DNA from: Dehalococcoidia bacterium
Lineage (GTDB): Bacteria > Chloroflexota > Dehalococcoidia > Plut-88900
Length of the DNA: 64,000 nucleotides
Assembly: GCA_965197585.1 (NCBI GenBank)
Contig: OZ240215.1
Coordinates: 1,248,001-1,312,000, forward strand
Reading direction: 5' to 3'
Shown here: positions 220 to 40,267 of the stretch, piece by piece
Layout of the letters: each line of letters starts with the position of its first letter
Numbering within the stretch: the first letter of the stretch is position 1
The notes under the pieces: model-generated
Database searches by the model: none
The model's input: the letters and a program-made list of their open reading frames with translations, nothing else
Told to the model about the DNA's origin: nothing
Made by a program: the position numbers and the translations under genes

Positions 220-1275
220 TGTAAGTGTTAGGTAATTCGTTGACAGATTGGTATAAGAGGCCAACACCAATCTGGAGGCGAGAATGCGAGACAATAGCAA
301 GGACCTCACCCTTGAGCGGAACTACATTCAGAAGTGGCGGTTCCTCATCCATGAGTATCAACTGGTCAAGGCAGGGAAGCATCCCCGTTTCCGCTTCGCC
401 CAGGACTTCTACTCCTTCCACGGCACTAGCCGTCAGACCTTCGCCAAGTACTACAACCGGTTCCTCCTCTCCCCCTCCGACAACGCCTTCCTCCCCCGTA
501 AGCGGGGCCCCGGGTGGAAGTCCCGCCGCACCCTGCCCTACATCGAGCAGAAGGTCATCAACGAGCGCCTTAACGGTACCAACCGTTACGAGATCTATGC
601 CATACTCAAACCCATCCTTAAACACAACACCCCTAAGCCCTCCACCATCTACGCCATCACCAGACGCCACGGTTTCAATAGGCTCACAAAGCCGATGCAG
701 CAGTCGAAGCGCAAGATCATCAAGACCCGGGCAGGAGAGCTGGGCCACCTGGACAGCCACTACCTCAGCCGGGATACCATCGTGGGCACCAAGCACCGCT
801 ACTACCTGGTGGGCCTCATCGACGCCTACACCCGTCTGGCCTGGGCCGAAGTGGTCGGAGACATCAAGAGTCTCTCCGTTATGTTTGCTACTCTGAAGTC
901 CATCAATTTCCTTAACGTGGAGTACGGCATCCAATTCGAGGCCATCCTCACCGACAACGGCCCCGAGATGGCCTCCCCAAGGAACACCGAGGGCCACCCC
1001 ATGGAACGGATGCTCAATGAGCTGGGCATAAAGCACCGCTACACCCGACCCTATAGGCCCCAGACCAACGGGAAGATAGAGCGGTTCTGGAGAACCTTGA
1101 ACGAGGACCTGCTGGAGGGGACAACCTTCGAATCGGTCTCGGAACTGAAGGACGAGCTTCAGCAGTACCTGATCTACTACAATACTCAACGACCCCACCA
1201 GGCAATGGACGGAAAGACCCCTTTGGAGACCCTTAAATCCACCTAATTCTGTCAACGAATTACCTGACATCCACA
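220..1275 (+). mobile_element. IS481-family insertion sequence
   Basis: Ends TGT...ACA. 28-bp imperfect terminal IRs: TGTAAGTGTTAGGTAATTCGTTGACAGA (220-247) vs revcomp of 1248-1275, TGTGGATGTCAGGTAATTCGTTGACAGA. ATTCC is duplicated at 215-219 and 1276-1280. Single rve-type transposase. Confidence 0.9.
284..1246 (+). CDS. IS481-family DDE transposase (integrase core domain)
   Basis: GELGHLD, ILTDNGPE and RPYRPQTNGKIERFWRTL motifs; C-terminal YNTQRPHQA. Confidence 0.92.
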   Translation: MRDNSKDLTLERNYIQKWRFLIHEYQLVKAGKHPRFRFAQDFYSFHGTSRQTFAKYYNRFLLSPSDNAFLPRKRGPGWKSRRTLPYIEQKVINERLNGTNRYEIYAILKPILKHNTPKPSTIYAITRRHGFNRLTKPMQQSKRKIIKTRAGELGHLDSHYLSRDTIVGTKHRYYLVGLIDAYTRLAWAEVVGDIKSLSVMFATLKSINFLNVEYGIQFEAILTDNGPEMASPRNTEGHPMERMLNELGIKHRYTRPYRPQTNGKIERFWRTLNEDLLEGTTFESVSELKDELQQYLIYYNTQRPHQAMDGKTPLETLKST

Positions 1276-1394: not shown

Positions 1395-1473
1395 AATAAA
1401 ACAGGGCGGGTGGGCGGGACTCAATATATCCCTGAGGGTGGGAGGGGCCTCTCCCAAATGTGACACGAACCCA

Positions 1474-1503
1474 TTGACCAAAGCAAAACACTTGTACTAT
1501 ATT
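1474..1503 (+). promoter_or_regulatory. Sigma70-like promoter with overlapping LexA-like box
   Basis: TTGACC-N18-TATATT with AAAC-ACTT-GTAC (1486-1497). The same layout occurs at 38499-38527. Confidence 0.5.
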
Positions 1504-1509
1504 CACCCT

Positions 1510-2170
1510 CGACTGGCCCGTCACTCACCTAAACCCAAGGAGGAACCACAACACAGGGGGAATCCCAGCCCCGGCCCCCGAGGACTCAACGTCCCAGCCC
1601 ATCCCAAAGGGCGACCCACACGCTGCCCCACGGCTCAAGCGAAAGCCGCCATCTCCTCATCCAAAGGCCCCGGCTCACCCTTCCCCCACCAACCAGGCGA
1701 TGGAAGGTCCGTAGACTATACGCGGCAAGCCCTGTCCAGGGGCCCCTGCCGATACAACGCTCCCCTCATCAGGAGCGTATACCTCGCCCTCACAGGCGAA
1801 TACGCTGACCCCGCCAATGGCCGGGCTCAGATACAGGGCCATTGAGCCCATAACCGACTCCCCCGCCGACGCCTTCGGAGAGGCACGCGCACCCCTCGGC
1901 GGCTCCGAGTCCCGCTCCCATCCCTCTGCATGATCGAGCACTTCTGGTGGTCGGGATGCCCCACACCGAGAATCCCTCGGGTCCCCTCCACATCCTCTCA
2001 GAAGCTACGGGCTGTCCTGTGCGGGCAGTCGACGCCCACAGGCACTGGCACAGGCCTAACCGCCTCCCTGCCCAACACTCTCGGACCTTCCATCGCCTTC
2101 CCTCCCCACATCAAACAAAAATCCAGAGTCCCAACTCCCAATCGAAGATCCGCCGCAGGAGGACTGAATA
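1510..2170 (+). ncRNA. Candidate large structured RNA / repeated non-coding cassette, copy 1
   Basis: Conserved blocks shared with 38535-39190; perfect 17-bp stem 1695-1711/2082-2098; no convincing CDS. Confidence 0.55.
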
Positions 2171-2188
2171 ACCGACGGCCTTCCGCTC

Positions 2189-30365: not shown

Positions 30366-30394
30366 CATTTCCAAATCATAAGCACAAACCACTC

Positions 30395-30555
30395 CCCGTT
30401 CAGGTGCCCATCCAGGGAGAATAGGGAAGGCGGTGAAAAACCGCCGCGGTAGCGCCACTGTAAGCGGGATTCGGAGTCGGAGTCCACTGTCGGTTAACCG
30501 ATGGGAAGGGCCCGGCACCCGAGATCCACCCCGCAAGCCAGGAGACCTGCCCGAA
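30395..30555 (+). ncRNA. Cobalamin (AdoCbl) riboswitch
   Basis: AGGTGC...AATAGGGAA.GCGGTGAAAAACCGC..GCCACTGTAA...CCACTG...TGGGAAGG...AAGCCAGGAGACCTGCC (B12 box), upstream of btuCFD. Confidence 0.95.
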
Positions 30556-30629
30556 CGGGAGGTGACCACTCTCCGCATAAGAGAGGGTCCCTAGCGCGTT
30601 GGGCAAGAGTCCCGGACAGAGCGCAACAA

Positions 30630-34025: not shown

Positions 34026-34100
34026 TGGTGGGCCCGCCTGGATTCGAACCAGGGACCAATCGGTTATGAGCCGACCGCTCTGCCGCTGAGCTACGAGCCC
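34026..34100 (-). tRNA. tRNA with CAT anticodon, most likely tRNA-Ile2 (lysidine)
   Basis: GGGCTCGTAGCTCAGCGGCAGAGCGGTCGGCTCATAACCGATTGGTCCCTGGTTCGAATCCAGGCGGGCCCACCA; cloverleaf with encoded CCA; lacks fMet identity features. Confidence 0.92.
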
Positions 34101-37338: not shown

Positions 37339-38391
37339 CTAGTAGGAAAACCCCCCACCCCCCGTCGGCTGCCCGGTCTTCATGTCTATGGTCTCGAACA
37401 ACCGGGGCCCGAGAGCCGCCAGCAGCCCGAGCGCCGCCAGGTGCATCGTCCTGTCCGTCGGGTCCAGGGGTGGGGCCACCTCACACAGGTCTATACCCTT
37501 CACAATGTCGTACTGGCCGAGAGCCGTCATCAGCGATAGGAATTCCCGGGCCCGGATACCCTGGTAAACGCACGCGGTCGTCCCCGGCGACTCCGATCCG
37601 TCTACAACGTCAATGTCCACACTCACGTACACAGCGTCCACACTCGCCGCCGCAACTTCCAACACTTCCTTGAGAGCTTCCTCGATTCCCTTGTCCAGCA
37701 TCTGCCGCGCCGTCACCATCTTCAGACTGTGGTCGGTGTACATCCGATACTGCTCGGCATCTAGGACTGCGCCATTCAGCCCCAGCCACGCCATATTCTT
37801 GTAGGAGATGGTAGCGTTCTCGCTGATGCGCCTGGCAGACGTGCCGTGATTAAATCGGCTGCCTGCCTGCAGTTCGTCCCAGAAATCGGGATGGCTGTCG
37901 ATGTGCAGGTACCCAATCCGTGGACTCGAATACCTCTCCATCATCCCCCTCGCAAACCCGAGAAAGCCCGGGTAGCAAACGTAGTGGTCGCCCCCAAGGA
38001 TTACCGGCGAGCCCCCCCGACGCACGATATCGCTCACCCCCGAGGCCACACCCTCCGTGGTCACCATGATGTCCTGGGGAGAAATATCCAGGTCGCCGAT
38101 GTCGGCCAGGAGCCCGTCACCCTTGAACCGAAACCCCATGTGCGAGTCCAGGTCGACCGTCGTGCGGTCTTCGGCCATCTCCTGCACCATCCGATACTTG
38201 TACGTCCCCTCCCGTATGCCCCGAGGCCCGAACCGCGCACCCTTCCTCCCGATGTTGATTCCCTCGTCAATCGGCACCCCCGCCACCACCGTCATCCCTT
38301 CCTTCACTTCCTCCCTCCCGATGATCGGCGCCCCGAAGAAGGACGGAAATCCTACGTATGAGTTGATGTAGCCCGGCTTGGTTACTGCCAT
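37339..38391 (-). CDS. Ureohydrolase (agmatinase/arginase family)
   Basis: GARFGPRGIR, GGDH, DSHPD, SVDIDVVD, EVAP. Confidence 0.9.
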   Translation of the reverse strand: MAVTKPGYINSYVGFPSFFGAPIIGREEVKEGMTVVAGVPIDEGINIGRKGARFGPRGIREGTYKYRMVQEMAEDRTTVDLDSHMGFRFKGDGLLADIGDLDISPQDIMVTTEGVASGVSDIVRRGGSPVILGGDHYVCYPGFLGFARGMMERYSSPRIGYLHIDSHPDFWDELQAGSRFNHGTSARRISENATISYKNMAWLGLNGAVLDAEQYRMYTDHSLKMVTARQMLDKGIEEALKEVLEVAAASVDAVYVSVDIDVVDGSESPGTTACVYQGIRAREFLSLMTALGQYDIVKGIDLCEVAPPLDPTDRTMHLAALGLLAALGPRLFETIDMKTGQPTGGGGFSY

Positions 38392-38498
38392 ATTGCACCT
38401 CCGGTTGGTGGAAACCGCGCTAATTTAACCCCCACCCCTGAGATAGGTCAACAAACCACTTGCTGATCCCGTTCACATAGAGGGGTGACATATCCCCC

Positions 38499-38527
38499 TT
38501 GACTTCATAAGACACATGTTCTATTAT
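38499..38527 (+). promoter_or_regulatory. Sigma70-like promoter with overlapping LexA-like box
   Basis: TTGACT-N17-TATTAT with AGAC-ACAT-GTTCT (38510-38522). Confidence 0.6.
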
Positions 38528-38534
38528 TGGGCCA

Positions 38535-39190
38535 GTCTAGACCCGACACCCACCTTAAGGAGGTACCAAAAACTAGGGAAGCCCACTCGACCCACCCGAG
38601 GACTCAACGCCCAAGCCCATCCCAACGGGCGGCCCACCCGCCGCCCCGCGGCTCAAGCGAAAGCCGCCATCTCCTCTACCAAGGGCCCCAGCTATCCCTT
38701 CCCTGACCATCAGGCGATGGAAGACGCCCTGGACCGTACTTGAAAGTCTCCTCACGGAGCAACCTTGTCCCATGGAGCGGAACGGGGCAGCCCGTAGCCG
38801 AGGACTTCTCGGCTCTCCGTCCGCTTCCTCAAATAAACTGGGCTGCCGCCGTCTCCCGGCTCCGGGACATCGTCGGCTAACTGGATATCCCGTACTCCTG
38901 CGAGGGGAACTGACCCTGGACTTTCCCCTTCCTGCACTCGCCTACGGCGGACAGCGCAGCCAACCCTGCATCGGAGCCTATGACGGATGACGGACCCGTA
39001 CGTCCGACCATACTTCCAGGTCTAGGCGGCGGCGGAGCCCCGTCCCCACGTTCCCGGGACGCCTCCATGCCCGCATTATCTAAATATAGGGAGCCTAATC
39101 CAGCAAGCGTCTTTCATCGCCTTCCCAAAACCCAACAGACAGAACGGAAACCGAAACTCCACAATCGAAGATCCGCCTCTGGAGGACTAA
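38535..39190 (+). ncRNA. Candidate large structured RNA / repeated non-coding cassette, copy 2
   Basis: Conserved blocks shared with 1510-2170; 16-bp stem 38712-38727/39107-39122 with one G-U pair. Confidence 0.55.
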
Positions 39191-39271
39191 AGAAAAACCC
39201 GGTGTGTCACTAACGTGTCAAACGAATGCAATCGCTTGTACGAACGGCATGGGCAGACTAGAATTGCCTCC

Positions 39272-40267
39272 ATGACTACCCAACCCACTCCCGACCCCGA
39301 ACCCTCCTTCATCGGCCTGCCCTCTTTCCTCAAGCTGCCCTACGTCACCGACCCCGCTGAACTCAAACGCCTCGCCCCCGACGTGGCGATCATGGGCGCA
39401 CCCTTCGATATGGGGACCACCATAAGGCCGGGAACGAGGTTCGGGCCCCGGGCCATTCGCCAGGCCGCAGGATACGTCGGCGGCAGTCCCGTCGAGCCCA
39501 TGTACCACGTCTCCCTCAAGGTCGCCCCCTTCGCCGTCCTCAAGGTCGTGGATTTCGGCGATGCCAACTGCTCTCCCCACTCCCTGGAACTCGCCCACGC
39601 CGCCATCAATCGCAAAGTCTCCGACGCCCTGGCCGCCAACACCCTTCCTATAGTCCTCGGCGGCGACCACTCGATAACCCTTCCAGCCGCTACCGCCGTC
39701 GCCGACGCCTGGGGACGAGGCAAGGTCGGCATCATCCACTTTGACTCCCACGCCGACACCGCCCCAGACAGCTTCGGAGGCAGCCTGATCGCCCACGGCA
39801 GCCCCATGCGCAGGCTCATCGAAAGCGGCTCCGTCCTCCCCAGGAACTTCGTCCAGATCGGCCTCCGGGGCTACTGGCCCCCCGCCGAGGTCTGGCAATG
39901 GATGGAAGAGCAAGGCATGCGCTGGCACCTCATGACCGAGCTCGAAGAGCGTGGTTTCGACGTTGTCATGGACGAGGCCATCAATGAAGCCCTGGACGGC
40001 CCCGAGTTTATCTACCTCTCCGTGGATATCGATGTCCTTGACCCGGGCTTCGCGCCTGGCACCGGCACCCCGGAACCCGGAGGCATGAACCCCAGCCAGC
40101 TTCTCCGCGCCGTCCGGAACATCGTTTCTCGGGTCAACCTAGTCGCCATGGACGTCGTGGAAGTCTCTCCACCCTACGACGGTCCGGGCGCGGTCACCGC
40201 CGAGCACGCCCACCGGGTCGTCGTTGAAGCCATAGCCGCACTAGCCCACAAACGCACATTCTCCTAA
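39272..40267 (+). CDS. speB: Agmatinase / guanidino-amidinohydrolase
   Basis: RPGTRFGPRAIR, GGDHSI, DSHAD, HGSPM, GLRGYWP, DIDVLDPGFAPGTGTPE; exact substrate is uncertain. Confidence 0.85.
   Translation: MTTQPTPDPEPSFIGLPSFLKLPYVTDPAELKRLAPDVAIMGAPFDMGTTIRPGTRFGPRAIRQAAGYVGGSPVEPMYHVSLKVAPFAVLKVVDFGDANCSPHSLELAHAAINRKVSDALAANTLPIVLGGDHSITLPAATAVADAWGRGKVGIIHFDSHADTAPDSFGGSLIAHGSPMRRLIESGSVLPRNFVQIGLRGYWPPAEVWQWMEEQGMRWHLMTELEERGFDVVMDEAINEALDGPEFIYLSVDIDVLDPGFAPGTGTPEPGGMNPSQLLRAVRNIVSRVNLVAMDVVEVSPPYDGPGAVTAEHAHRVVVEAIAALAHKRTFS

Follow-up and report, generated by a model that had tools for sequence, protein, structure and literature searches.

MITEs are usually a few hundred bp long, and the term mobile insertion cassette is used for nonautonomous derivatives of insertion sequences (IS). 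Bacterial MITEs, for example, the Correia elements of Neisseria and QMITE1 and QMITE2 of Coxiella, are described as having internal sigma-70-type promoters and as giving rise to element transcripts and small RNAs, and the same account describes MITE RNA hairpins that can be RNase III substrates (PMC10969869). The cry3A mRNA of Bacillus thuringiensis is described as having a noninitiating Shine-Dalgarno-like sequence near its 5' end (STAB-SD), and binding of the 30S subunit to it is proposed to block the 5'-3' exonuclease RNase J (PMC4113751).

Here, we compare with these systems two similar stretches of DNA, copy 1 and copy 2, from a 64-kb window (the whole stretch of 64,000 nucleotides that was analyzed and to which all positions refer, unless another genome is named). 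They are 2 of 57 copies of one element that nhmmer finds in the 3.43-Mb genome. We consider it likely that this element is a nonautonomous derivative of an IS481-like insertion sequence, in which a self-transcribed, structured noncoding RNA gene of ~0.6 kb has taken the place of the transposase gene.

RESULTS

Distribution and layout of the element

The element is restricted to one genus, being present in all nine genomes of that genus (9 of the 12 genomes of the order) and in none of the 32 other genomes searched; the phages and plasmids searched gave no match to it either. Copies measure 739 to 885 bp where both ends were found (0.74 to 0.89 kb overall) and up to ~1,100 bp with nested inserts. 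No conserved reading frame was found inside them, so that no protein-coding gene or transposase lies within. Rfam at gathering thresholds, run on the window, gave no match over the element, and with E values of up to 10 (38440-39260) there were only four chance-level matches, all far under the thresholds. We found no paper on this element or on landing adjacent to −35 boxes.

The element is bounded by imperfect terminal inverted repeats of ~27 bp with TG..CA tips, left and right matching by eye at ~18 of 27 positions. A recognizable left repeat is present in 15 and a right repeat in 24 of the 57 copies of this genome; copy 2 has both, and in copy 1 neither was recognized. The parts of both copies are listed in Table 1. 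With respect to base composition, the 5' domain of copy 2 contains 44% C and 20% G. The genes adjoining the two copies are arginase-family, luciferase-like, and IS transposase genes. Small palindromic repeats are abundant in the genome and insert into these elements; of the REP-like 22-nt hairpin, other copies carry zero to three units at the identical point, ACAA^CTGAA.

Table 1. Features of the two element copies in the window
Feature	Position	Strand	Basis or remark
Copy 2, target flank (5 nt)	38459-38463		3/5 match with the 5 nt after the right end
Copy 2, left terminal inverted repeat (TGATCC...GTGACAT)	38464..38491	+	Similarity among copies starts here; aligns with left ends of the parent IS in G005 and G007
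Copy 2, own promoter: −35 TTGACT 38499-38504, 17-nt spacer, −10 TATTAT 38522-38527	38499..38527	+	Read from sequence
Copy 2, AAGGAGG (38557-38563), then conserved C-rich 5' domain	38557..38711	+	nhmmer, 57 genome copies
Copy 2, closing helix 5' arm (AGGCGATGGAAGACGC at 38712-38727)	38712..38734	+	Sequence, folding
Copy 2, variable domain (middle cluster 1, 21 members)	38735..39097	+	Members 89-97% identical, unrelated to the other 15 clusters
Copy 2, closing helix 3' arm (GCGTCTTTCATCGCCT at 39107-39122)	39098..39122	+	Sequence, folding
Copy 2, A/C-rich, G-poor tail	39123..39201	+	42% A, 32% C, 18% G
Copy 2, 22-nt REP-like hairpin inserted in tail	39165-39186		
Copy 2, right terminal inverted repeat (GTGTGTCAC...GAATGCA)	39202..39230	+	Aligns with right ends of the parent IS
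Host DNA beside copy 2: flank ATCGC, −35 TTGTAC 39236-39241, 17-nt spacer, −10 TAGAAT 39259-39264	39231..39264	+	
Arginase-family gene downstream of copy 2	Starts ATG 39272		Pfam
Copy 1, GTGACAC motif	1460-1466	+	
Copy 1, own promoter: −35 TTGACC 1474-1479, 18-nt spacer, −10 TATATT 1498-1503	1460..1503 (including GTGACAC)	+	
Copy 1, AAGGAGG (1537-1543), then conserved 5' domain	1537..1694	+	
Copy 1, closing helix 5' arm (AGGCGATGGAAGGTCCG)	1695..1711	+	
Copy 1, variable domain (middle cluster 8, 3 members)	1712..2081	+	
Copy 1, closing helix 3' arm (CGGACCTTCCATCGCCT)	2082..2098	+	
Copy 1, A/C-rich tail with REP-like hairpin at 2142-2163	2099..2173	+	Right terminal repeat not recognized

Mobility, landing site, and parent insertion sequence

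Among the 22 elements with both ends, some of which are orthologous to each other, 18 are flanked by a 5-bp target duplication that matches at 4 or more of its 5 positions, and 11 of those duplications are perfect. The site of copy 2 is filled in three of the nine genus genomes and that of copy 1 in four of the nine. A clean empty site is found in G001, where both flanking genes are kept together with the host promoter, with the same host −35 and −10 as beside copy 2, and the element is absent. We observe that the element lands upstream of a host sigma-70-type −35 box at a distance of 5 bp, in a single orientation, co-oriented with the host promoter. Of 42 right ends, 27 are followed by TTG at +6, and 22 also have TAnnnT 16 to 19 nt further, with a genome background of TTG at 1.3% of positions.

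A parent IS was found in two of the nine genus genomes, G005 and G007, and not in the genome analyzed here, so that the 57 copies of this genome are probably immobile now. It is intact in G007 (L232:1382-2449), where it encodes a 328-aa transposase, and broken in G005. Its ends are identical to the element ends at 20/27 and 23/27 positions, and in both genomes it obeys the same landing rule as the element, with a perfect GTGGA duplication and then TTGCGC-17-TAATAT in G005, and with TTGTTG-17-TAGAAT following it in G007. The G007 transposase is of the DDE (rve) type, and its best NCBIfam match is IS481 (NF033577, E = 2.5e-48), at 165 bits versus a curated cutoff of 224. An IS with 23 copies in this genome (220-1275 in the window) was also considered as the mobilizer. 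One of its ends agrees with the right end of the element at 18 of 28 positions (shuffle P of about 8e-4); the insertion sites of this IS are REP hairpins, its transposase has only a distant relationship with that of the true parent (32% identity over 62 aa), and as a candidate it was superseded by the G007/G005 IS.

With 739 to 885 bp, the element is larger than is usual for a MITE, and a cassette-type label therefore fits it better than "miniature."

Promoter, leader, and probable transcripts of the proposed passenger RNA gene

A sigma-70-type promoter that reads into the element is intact in 114 of 115 copies, its hexamers being kept while the spacer and leader occur in three unrelated versions. 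The position of the motif AAGGAGG is kept in 115 of 121 copies; it lies ~25 nt from the predicted transcript start and is not followed by any of the start codons ATG, GTG, and TTG. On the basis of this near-universal preservation of promoter and motif, we argue that RNA production is under selection.

A perfect AAGGAGG in nearly all copies could also be read as the Shine-Dalgarno sequence of a small protein gene with a short or unusual frame, and a 3'-end frame that terminates in "...IEDPPLED*," with either TGA or TAA as the stop codon, appeared to be conserved. This has next to no probability and is already contradicted by the data: no start codon of the three lies within reach of the motif, no frame is open across the element, and close copies differ by indels of 4 nt and other non-multiples of three. 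The "IEDPPLED*" stretch itself is the 22-nt REP-like hairpin, which is absent, single, or repeated by copy (zero to three times).

With respect to transcription, the preliminary description had proposed an RNA of the + strand, and this is supported by the intact promoter together with folding and with cover by contigs of RNA libraries. The + strand folds with z scores of −4.71 and −5.83, versus −0.34 for the minus strand of copy 2 (20 shuffles each). Positions 38591 to 39118 are covered by contigs of four RNA-library runs from three studies, one reaching ~39182; such contigs give neither strand nor transcript ends, DNA carry-over into the libraries is possible, and their depth cannot rank expression. 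The left repeat and promoter (38412-38539) are without a contig in the four runs, and 39180-39300 is almost without one, absent cover not being evidence. The contigs of all four runs stop at 39109-39118, within the 3' arm, which we do not take as the 3' end of the transcript, since assembly graphs break at junctions between subfamily-specific and shared sequence. The internal promoter is present, and its rightward transcription is supported, not proven. Antisense matches between the element RNA and the IS of the window are only at chance level (10 to 14 nt, the longest imperfect).

Most likely, judging from sequence, AAGGAGG would act as a 30S-binding 5' stabilizer against RNase J, in the manner of STAB-SD. 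It is followed by the conserved C-rich 5' domain and then by a long-range helix closing a GC-rich domain. No intrinsic terminator is present at the 3' end of the element, only the A/C-rich, G-poor tail. This tail most likely loads Rho, in which case the transcript would end before the host promoter. Genes for RNase J and Rho are present in the genome.

The same tail and Rho gene would also suit a mobile regulatory leader, by which the element adds an upstream promoter and a structured RNA with conditional Rho termination in the tail, and regulated read-through into the host promoter or gene wires many host genes into one response. The fixed orientation 5 bp upstream of host promoters agrees with this as well, since the transcript always runs toward the host gene where the right end is intact. 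We regard such a role as distinctly unlikely, because copy 1 and other copies without a right end face a convergent gene or none, and no ligand-binding or known leader family was matched. In addition, the parent IS lands likewise, indicating that the orientation is a property of the transposase and that selection for regulation is not needed to account for it.

The closing helix

Both copies had been reported to contain a long-range stem, perfect in copy 1 and with a single G-U pair in copy 2, and both stems are indeed found at the arms listed in Table 1. In copy 1, all 17 of 17 positions form Watson-Crick pairs with 370 nt between the arms, and in the 64-kb window this is the sole perfect inverted repeat of at least 15 nt with arms more than 100 nt apart (11 inverted-repeat pairs listed in all). 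In copy 2, one G-T position can pair as G-U on the + strand only, in agreement with the earlier observation, and duplex folding extends the helix inward to ~38734/39098, beyond a 3-nt internal loop. The stem is formed in both minimum-energy folds. A core helix, GGCGATGGAA/TTCCATCGCC, is present in 113 of the 121 copies examined (57/57 of this genome and 56/64 from related genomes). The arm-to-arm distance in these 113 copies ranges from 299 to 550 nt, and the closing helix is long-range and nearly perfect over 15 to 27 bp.

As to whether the stem is made of ordinary MITE terminal repeats, the element does have terminal repeats, target duplications, and empty sites in relatives, but the stem is internal and distinct from those repeats. 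Similarly, the inner pairs had been described as compensatory between copies. Compensated differences are real, but they consist mainly of two block versions, ACGCC/GGCGT and GTCC/GGAC, next to a few single-pair series, e.g., one GC to GU to AU series (ACGC/GCGT, ACGC/GTGT, ACAC/GTGT). Core helix positions 3 to 12 contain 31 G-U cells versus ~5 A-C cells, counts that are inflated by related copies, and the block versions represent few independent events. Most of the "compensatory" stem differences derive from whole-domain swaps between copies, to which a few true compensatory substitutions are added. The helix is best seen as the base of a swappable domain, with copies exchanging modules (leader, middle, and ends) by recombination and each middle bringing its own inner stem halves.

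A stem of this kind could in addition be an RNase III site, or correspond to retron-like a1/a2 arms, with the enclosed domain being excised, circularized, or reverse transcribed, as the preliminary description suggested. At 15 to 27 nearly perfect bp, the helix is in principle long enough for RNase III, the gene for which is present in the genome, and the Correia elements are described as a precedent in which RNase III cuts hairpins of transposon repeats (PMC10969869). We nevertheless consider excision very improbable. RNA contigs run unbroken over the 5' arm, e.g., at 38597-38741, and no back-joint or circular junction was found among the RNA-library contigs examined, although contigs are a poor test of this, so circularization was not borne out. 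Nor were the retron arms: the reverse transcriptase domain RVT_1 has 0 matches in this single-contig genome (completeness estimate, 91.9%), with controls matched in 3 of 14 genomes.

Variable middle domains

The middle domain, 300 to 550 nt long, occurs in at least 16 mutually unrelated versions, and the middles group into subfamilies of 87 to 97% identity. Middles and leaders are combined in several ways, with middle cluster 1 accompanied by leader types ii, i, and iii in 12, 5, and 2 copies and cluster 2 in 9, 4, and 5 copies, respectively. Inversion of the segment between the arms was rejected (0 opposite-strand matches among 113 middles), as was a nested MITE as the origin of the middle, since neither an empty frame nor a free middle with arms was found and direct repeats are missing from the flanks. 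Two stray 3' arms in G000, at 683.9 kb and 1,591.5 kb, look like fragments.

Within the middles we observe 51 Watson-Crick double changes versus 11 to 19 in slid controls, together with 237 predicted pairs that have incompatible variants. There is no signal of G-U versus A-C asymmetry inside them (167 versus 144 pairs), so that DNA-level as well as RNA-level processes could maintain the pairing. In the 5' domain, 1 of ~35 pairs clearly covaries, with too little variation to judge. Comparison of the orthologous copy 2 between G000 and G002 showed no excess conservation, identity being 87% for the 5' domain, 96% for the middle, and 93% for the flanking genes. The middle of copy 1 is partly a repeat that is found at 12 or more other loci of the genome.

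These results bear on the question of whether the element is simply an ordinary, decaying nonautonomous transposon without a functional RNA, the promoter being leftover or accidental, the transcripts being by-products, and the stem and hairpins being inverted repeats that arose from DNA processes such as recombination joints, nested palindromic repeats, or template switching. The near equality of G-U and A-C in the middle helices, the scant covariation of the 5' domain, the orthologous copy without excess conservation, the many small palindromic repeats that insert into the elements, and the repeated part of the copy 1 middle are all in line with such a relic. Even so, we find it unlikely, given that the promoter hexamers are intact in all but one of 115 copies though spacer and leader exist in three unrelated versions, and that AAGGAGG is kept in place in 115/121 copies. 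Furthermore, no copy is without a middle (minimum arm distance of 299 nt among 113 copies), a free middle with arms was not found outside the element, and the arms are without flanking direct repeats. The strand-specific stability of the fold and the excess of G-U over A-C cells in the closing helix core (31 versus ~5) likewise argue against it.

DISCUSSION

It is possible, and we suggest it tentatively, that the passenger is a large functional RNA of a new class, spreading in the form of a mobile gene. A conserved scaffold (5' stabilizer, C-rich domain, and closing helix) would display an exchangeable domain of 300 to 550 nt, a promoter-homing transposase would plant the unit by host promoters, and the RNA or its regulated termination might then have the neighboring promoter, Rho, the ribosome, or the spread of the element itself as a target. 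The element would clearly exemplify a bacterial transposon derivative with a whole large structured RNA gene, not a protein, as its cargo, and one that has reached dozens of promoter-bearing copies per genome. Its parent transposase appears to insert it upstream of −35 boxes at a spacing of exactly 5 bp and in one orientation, a promoter-homing rule that is directly testable and possibly useful as a tool. The modular middle domain, in turn, offers a natural experiment as to the parts that a large RNA has to retain. It also illustrates that "compensatory" stem differences between two copies can come from whole-module swaps, and that many copies are needed before such differences are read as RNA covariation.

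Comparison with known systems

The passenger resembles the orphan large RNAs (OLE, GOLLD, ROOL, raiA, and HEARO/omega RNA) in its length of several hundred nucleotides and its strong predicted structure, with no function assigned to either, and HEARO is also associated with mobile elements. Unlike those RNAs, it has no Rfam match even at E values of up to 10, is present dozens of times per genome, with every copy bearing a promoter of its own, and has a middle domain without sequence conservation and no associated protein gene in the element. The inverted repeats that flank a structured noncoding RNA with its own promoter are reminiscent of retron msr-msd RNA with its a1/a2 arms; in contrast to a retron, no reverse transcriptase was found in the genome, the enclosed part measures 300 to 550 nt, there are 57 copies, and the element was moved as DNA by a DDE transposase. 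The likeness to STAB-SD lies in a strong, noninitiating Shine-Dalgarno-like sequence near the 5' end in a genome with an RNase J gene, although this is a likeness by sequence logic only, and the host belongs to the Dehalococcoidia rather than to the Firmicutes.

As for the transposition machinery, the G007 parent shares with the IS481 family a DDE (rve-type) transposase, TG..CA tips, and a short target duplication, whereas its transposase, at 165 bits, scores below the curated cutoff of 224 for that family. To our knowledge, landing beside −35 boxes is not a property of the IS481 family.

The closest counterparts are MITEs and mobile insertion cassettes as they are described in PMC10969869, with which the element shares terminal inverted repeats, target duplications, the lack of a transposase, a large number of intergenic copies, and an autonomous IS relative; like Correia and QMITE1/2 in that description, it has sigma-70-type promoters inside the element and transcripts that probably arise from it. 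In contrast to MITEs, it is larger (0.74 to 0.89 kb), and the helix in question is internal rather than formed by the terminal repeats. It further differs from them in that its insertions keep a constant spacing to host −35 boxes and a single orientation, and in its passenger, a complete RNA transcription unit of ~0.6 kb that combines a conserved 5' domain with a closed domain that is swappable and occurs in at least 16 versions.

A promoter-adjacent insertion derived from an IS481-like element

The element represented by copy 1 and copy 2 is a non-autonomous IS481-like derivative that inserts next to promoters in one orientation. Iterated nhmmer searches with its 5' part recovered 57 copies in the 3.43-Mb genome holding the window (59% G+C), 46 of them with an nhmmer-recognisable 3' part 300 to 530 nt downstream of the 5' part. 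The 5' part occurs in 9/9 genomes of the genus, with dozens of matches in each (9 of the 12 genomes of the order), and in 0/32 other genomes searched in the class. Similarity within the copy 2 subfamily starts at TGATCCCGTTCACATAGAGGGGTGACA and stops at GTGTCACTAAYCTAYCGAACGAGTACA, which are imperfect inverted repeats with TG..CA tips, and 18 of the 22 elements with both ends found, some of which are mutual orthologues, have a 5-nt target duplication matching at no fewer than four of five positions (11 of the 18 perfect). The copy 2 site is filled in the window's genome (G000), in its relative G002 and, with another middle, in G007, with the element absent from the remaining six genus genomes, while the copy 1 site is filled in G000, G002, G005 and, with another middle, G003. 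In G001, where the copy 2 site is empty, the genes on either side are retained together with the promoter of the downstream one, and nothing lies between them. Terminal repeats, target duplications and empty sites, by which the preliminary description proposed to recognize an ordinary MITE, are thus found for the whole element; the stem itself lies internally and is not formed by the terminal repeats.

Features of the window discussed in the text
Feature	Position	Strand	Remarks
IS481-like IS, 1,056 bp	220-1275		transposase ORF 284-1246; 165 nt upstream of copy 1 promoter
Perfect 19-bp hairpin, 3-nt loop	1354-1394		between IS and copy 1; conserved in G002
Upstream block of copy 1	~1430-1460
Copy 1	~1460-2173	+
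Closing helix, copy 1	1695-1711 with 2082-2098	+	perfect 17 bp, 370 nt between arms
Repeated part of copy 1 middle	~1897-2076
REP-like hairpin, copy 1 tail	2142-2163		22 nt
Cobalamin riboswitch	30385-30568	+	Rfam, 105.8 bits
tRNA gene	34029-34100	-	Rfam
Arginase-family gene	37339-38391	-	beside copy 2
Copy 2	38464-39230	+
Closing helix, copy 2	38712-38727 with 39107-39122	+	single G-T position
REP-like hairpin, copy 2 tail	39165-39186		22 nt
Arginase-family gene	39272-40267	+	beside copy 2

Scanning 59 loci around IS481-like transposases for the element's ends, in the window's genome (29 rve-type transposase matches) and five sister genomes, we found one intact parent IS, in G007 (L232:1382-2449, with a 328-aa transposase), and a broken copy in G005. 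The ends of the G007 IS are identical to those of the element at 20/27 and 23/27 positions, and in alignments the homology spans ~27 nt on the left and ~45 nt on the right. With the G007 protein as query, the parent IS was detected in 2/9 genus genomes, neither of them the window's, so that the 57 copies in the latter are probably unable to move at present. The IS upstream of copy 1 was considered as a parent and rejected as a distinct element, since its transposase is a distant relative of that of the parent (32% identity over 62 aa) and its target is a REP hairpin. It has the ends TGTAAGTG...ATCCACA, is bordered by ATTCC on either side within such a hairpin (GTCATTCC...GGAATGAC), has 23 matches in the window's genome, most of them 100% identical, and is present in 5/9 genus genomes and 0/32 others. 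Antisense control of this neighboring IS was not seen.

To the right of the element, past the 5-nt duplication, lies a -35-like hexamer, with TTG at +6 in 27/42 right ends (16/25 in the window's genome and 11/17 at related loci) against 1.3% of genome positions; in 22/42, TAnnnT also follows 16 to 19 nt further on. The empty site of G001 has this promoter, indicating that it belongs to the host. Both parent ISs are placed in the same way (GTGGA, then TTGCGC-17-TAATAT in G005; TCCAC, then TTGTTG-17-TAGAAT in G007), and the element is always co-directional with the host promoter. Copy 2 sits between two divergent arginase-family genes.

Copy 1 and other copies with the type i leader that lack the usual left repeat have a common upstream block, TATCCCTGAGGGTGG...CCCAAATGTGACAC, also starting T(G)ATCCC, which may be a variant left end. 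A left end without the rest of the element, TGATCCCGTTCACATAGAGGGGTGACATCACCCCCTTG (G000:C1:3404961-3405000, not in the window), abuts the -35 of the groES-groEL promoter, with a CIRCE operator behind it, and may be a remnant of a deletion between the element's -35 and the host's. At G000:C1:659.3-660.7 kb, also not in the window, one element is interrupted between left repeat and promoter by the insertion of another IS, which has ~60-nt ends with GGTTACC repeats and encodes a 438-aa rve transposase.

A non-coding passenger with its own promoter

The internal promoter is nearly always intact, its layout (GTGACA-N7/8-TTGACN, a 16-18 nt spacer and TAnnnT) being kept in 114/115 anchorable copies. 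Spacer and ~40-nt leader each exist in three versions unrelated to one another. AAGGAGG lies ~25 nt past the predicted transcript start and is not followed by a start codon. No reading frame spans the element, close copies differ by indels whose lengths are not divisible by three, and what looked like a conserved C-terminal frame is a 22-nt REP-like hairpin found 0 to 3 times per copy; the element is therefore non-coding. This hairpin, TCGAAGATCCGCC(N3)GGAGGA, stands at a fixed point of the tail (ACAA^CTGAA), and similar hairpins, TCGAAGATGCGCC..GGCGTGA, occur elsewhere in intergenic DNA. C predominates on the + strand, at 44-46% against 20% G in the 5' part, and the tail is A/C-rich and G-poor. 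No Rfam family matches the element, the riboswitch and the tRNA gene being the sole Rfam matches in the window, and searches of phage and plasmid collections found nothing similar.

With respect to RNA, folding of the + strand against dinucleotide shuffles gave z = -4.71 and -5.83 for the two copies (0/20 shuffles as good), and the minus strand of copy 2 gave z = -0.34 (7/20 as good). RNA-library contigs from four runs of three studies, two of these runs labeled sponge metagenome, cover 38591-39118; one extends to ~39182, and several are continuous from the 5' domain through the 5' arm into the middle. The + strand RNA of the preliminary description is thus supported, not proven, since the contigs carry no information on strand or transcript ends and may stem from carried-over DNA.

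A closing helix around exchangeable middles

The long-range stem noted in the preliminary description is present in both copies and in their minimum-energy folds. Apart from the copy 1 stem, the whole window has no perfect inverted repeat of at least 15 nt with arms more than 100 nt apart; the stem of copy 2, whose G-T position can pair as G-U on the + strand only, reaches inward to ~38734/39098 in duplex folding. Complementarity holds across further copies, with the 10-bp core GGCGATGGAA/TTCCATCGCC found in 113/121, and non-Watson-Crick cells at core positions 3-12 are G-U in 31 cases versus A-C in ~5, cells that do not each count as a separate event. Inward of the core, the helix occurs mainly in two versions, ACGCC/GGCGT and GTCC/GGAC, and shows a few stepwise series (e.g., GC to GU to AU across three related copies).

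Copy 1 and copy 2 align in four parts: a common promoter, a common ~170-nt 5' part, unrelated middles and a common 3' part. Middles form subfamilies, 87-97% identical within and unrelated between, with 16 clusters among the 113 copies that have both arms; the copy 2 middle is one of 21 in the largest cluster, and that of copy 1 is one of 3 in another. Cluster 1 is found with all three leader types (12, 5 and 2 copies), as is cluster 2 (9, 4 and 5 copies), and both window sites hold a different middle in a sister species (L177 of G003 for copy 1, L173 of G007 for copy 2), indicating that copies swap whole modules. A different middle at an orthologous site means that elements landed at that promoter more than once or that recombination replaced the module; no inverted middle was seen. 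Because whole modules are swapped and each middle carries its own halves of the inner stem, the compensation between the two copies is for the most part one block difference: the paired inner differences reported earlier are real, and mostly do not represent many independent paired substitutions.

Inside the middles, Watson-Crick double changes number 51 versus 11-19 in slid controls, G-U and A-C variants are balanced (167 vs 144 pairs), many of the predicted pairs conflict with the variants, and supported pairs are concentrated in a few local hairpins. Pairing is thus kept in places, and these sequence comparisons are compatible with an RNA-level or a DNA-level cause alike. Variation in the 5' domain is too scarce to judge covariation, and the orthologous copy 2 in G002 shows no more conservation than its flanks. 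Part of the copy 1 middle, 107-187 nt long, matches at least 12 genome places outside the 57 elements, in both orientations; this looks like a smaller repeat that the middle shares or that is nested within it.

Proposed mechanism and comparison with known systems

The interpretation first put forward, an enclosed RNA excised by RNase III or reverse transcribed as in retrons, is partly supported as a whole. RNase III may cut at the closing helix, and an RNase III gene is present; with no RVT_1 gene detected in the genome, reverse transcription of the retron kind is unlikely. We propose that AAGGAGG would bind 30S subunits and shield the 5' end from RNase J, by analogy with STAB-SD, a precedent for such shielding described in PMC4113751; that the long helix would close and protect a swappable domain; and that the unstructured A/C-rich tail would load Rho, so that the transcript would end ahead of the host promoter. 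RNase J and Rho genes are both present. Promoter and AAGGAGG are intact in copies without terminal repeats, such as copy 1, which suggests selection for making RNA and not for moving alone.

No paper on this element was among those that the literature searches listed. Prokaryotic MITEs carrying sigma-70 promoters, MITE-derived small RNAs in Coxiella and Correia hairpins cleaved by RNase III are described in PMC10969869. The element differs from prokaryotic MITEs in its size, in its landing rule and in its cargo, a full unit specifying a modular RNA of ~0.6 kb.
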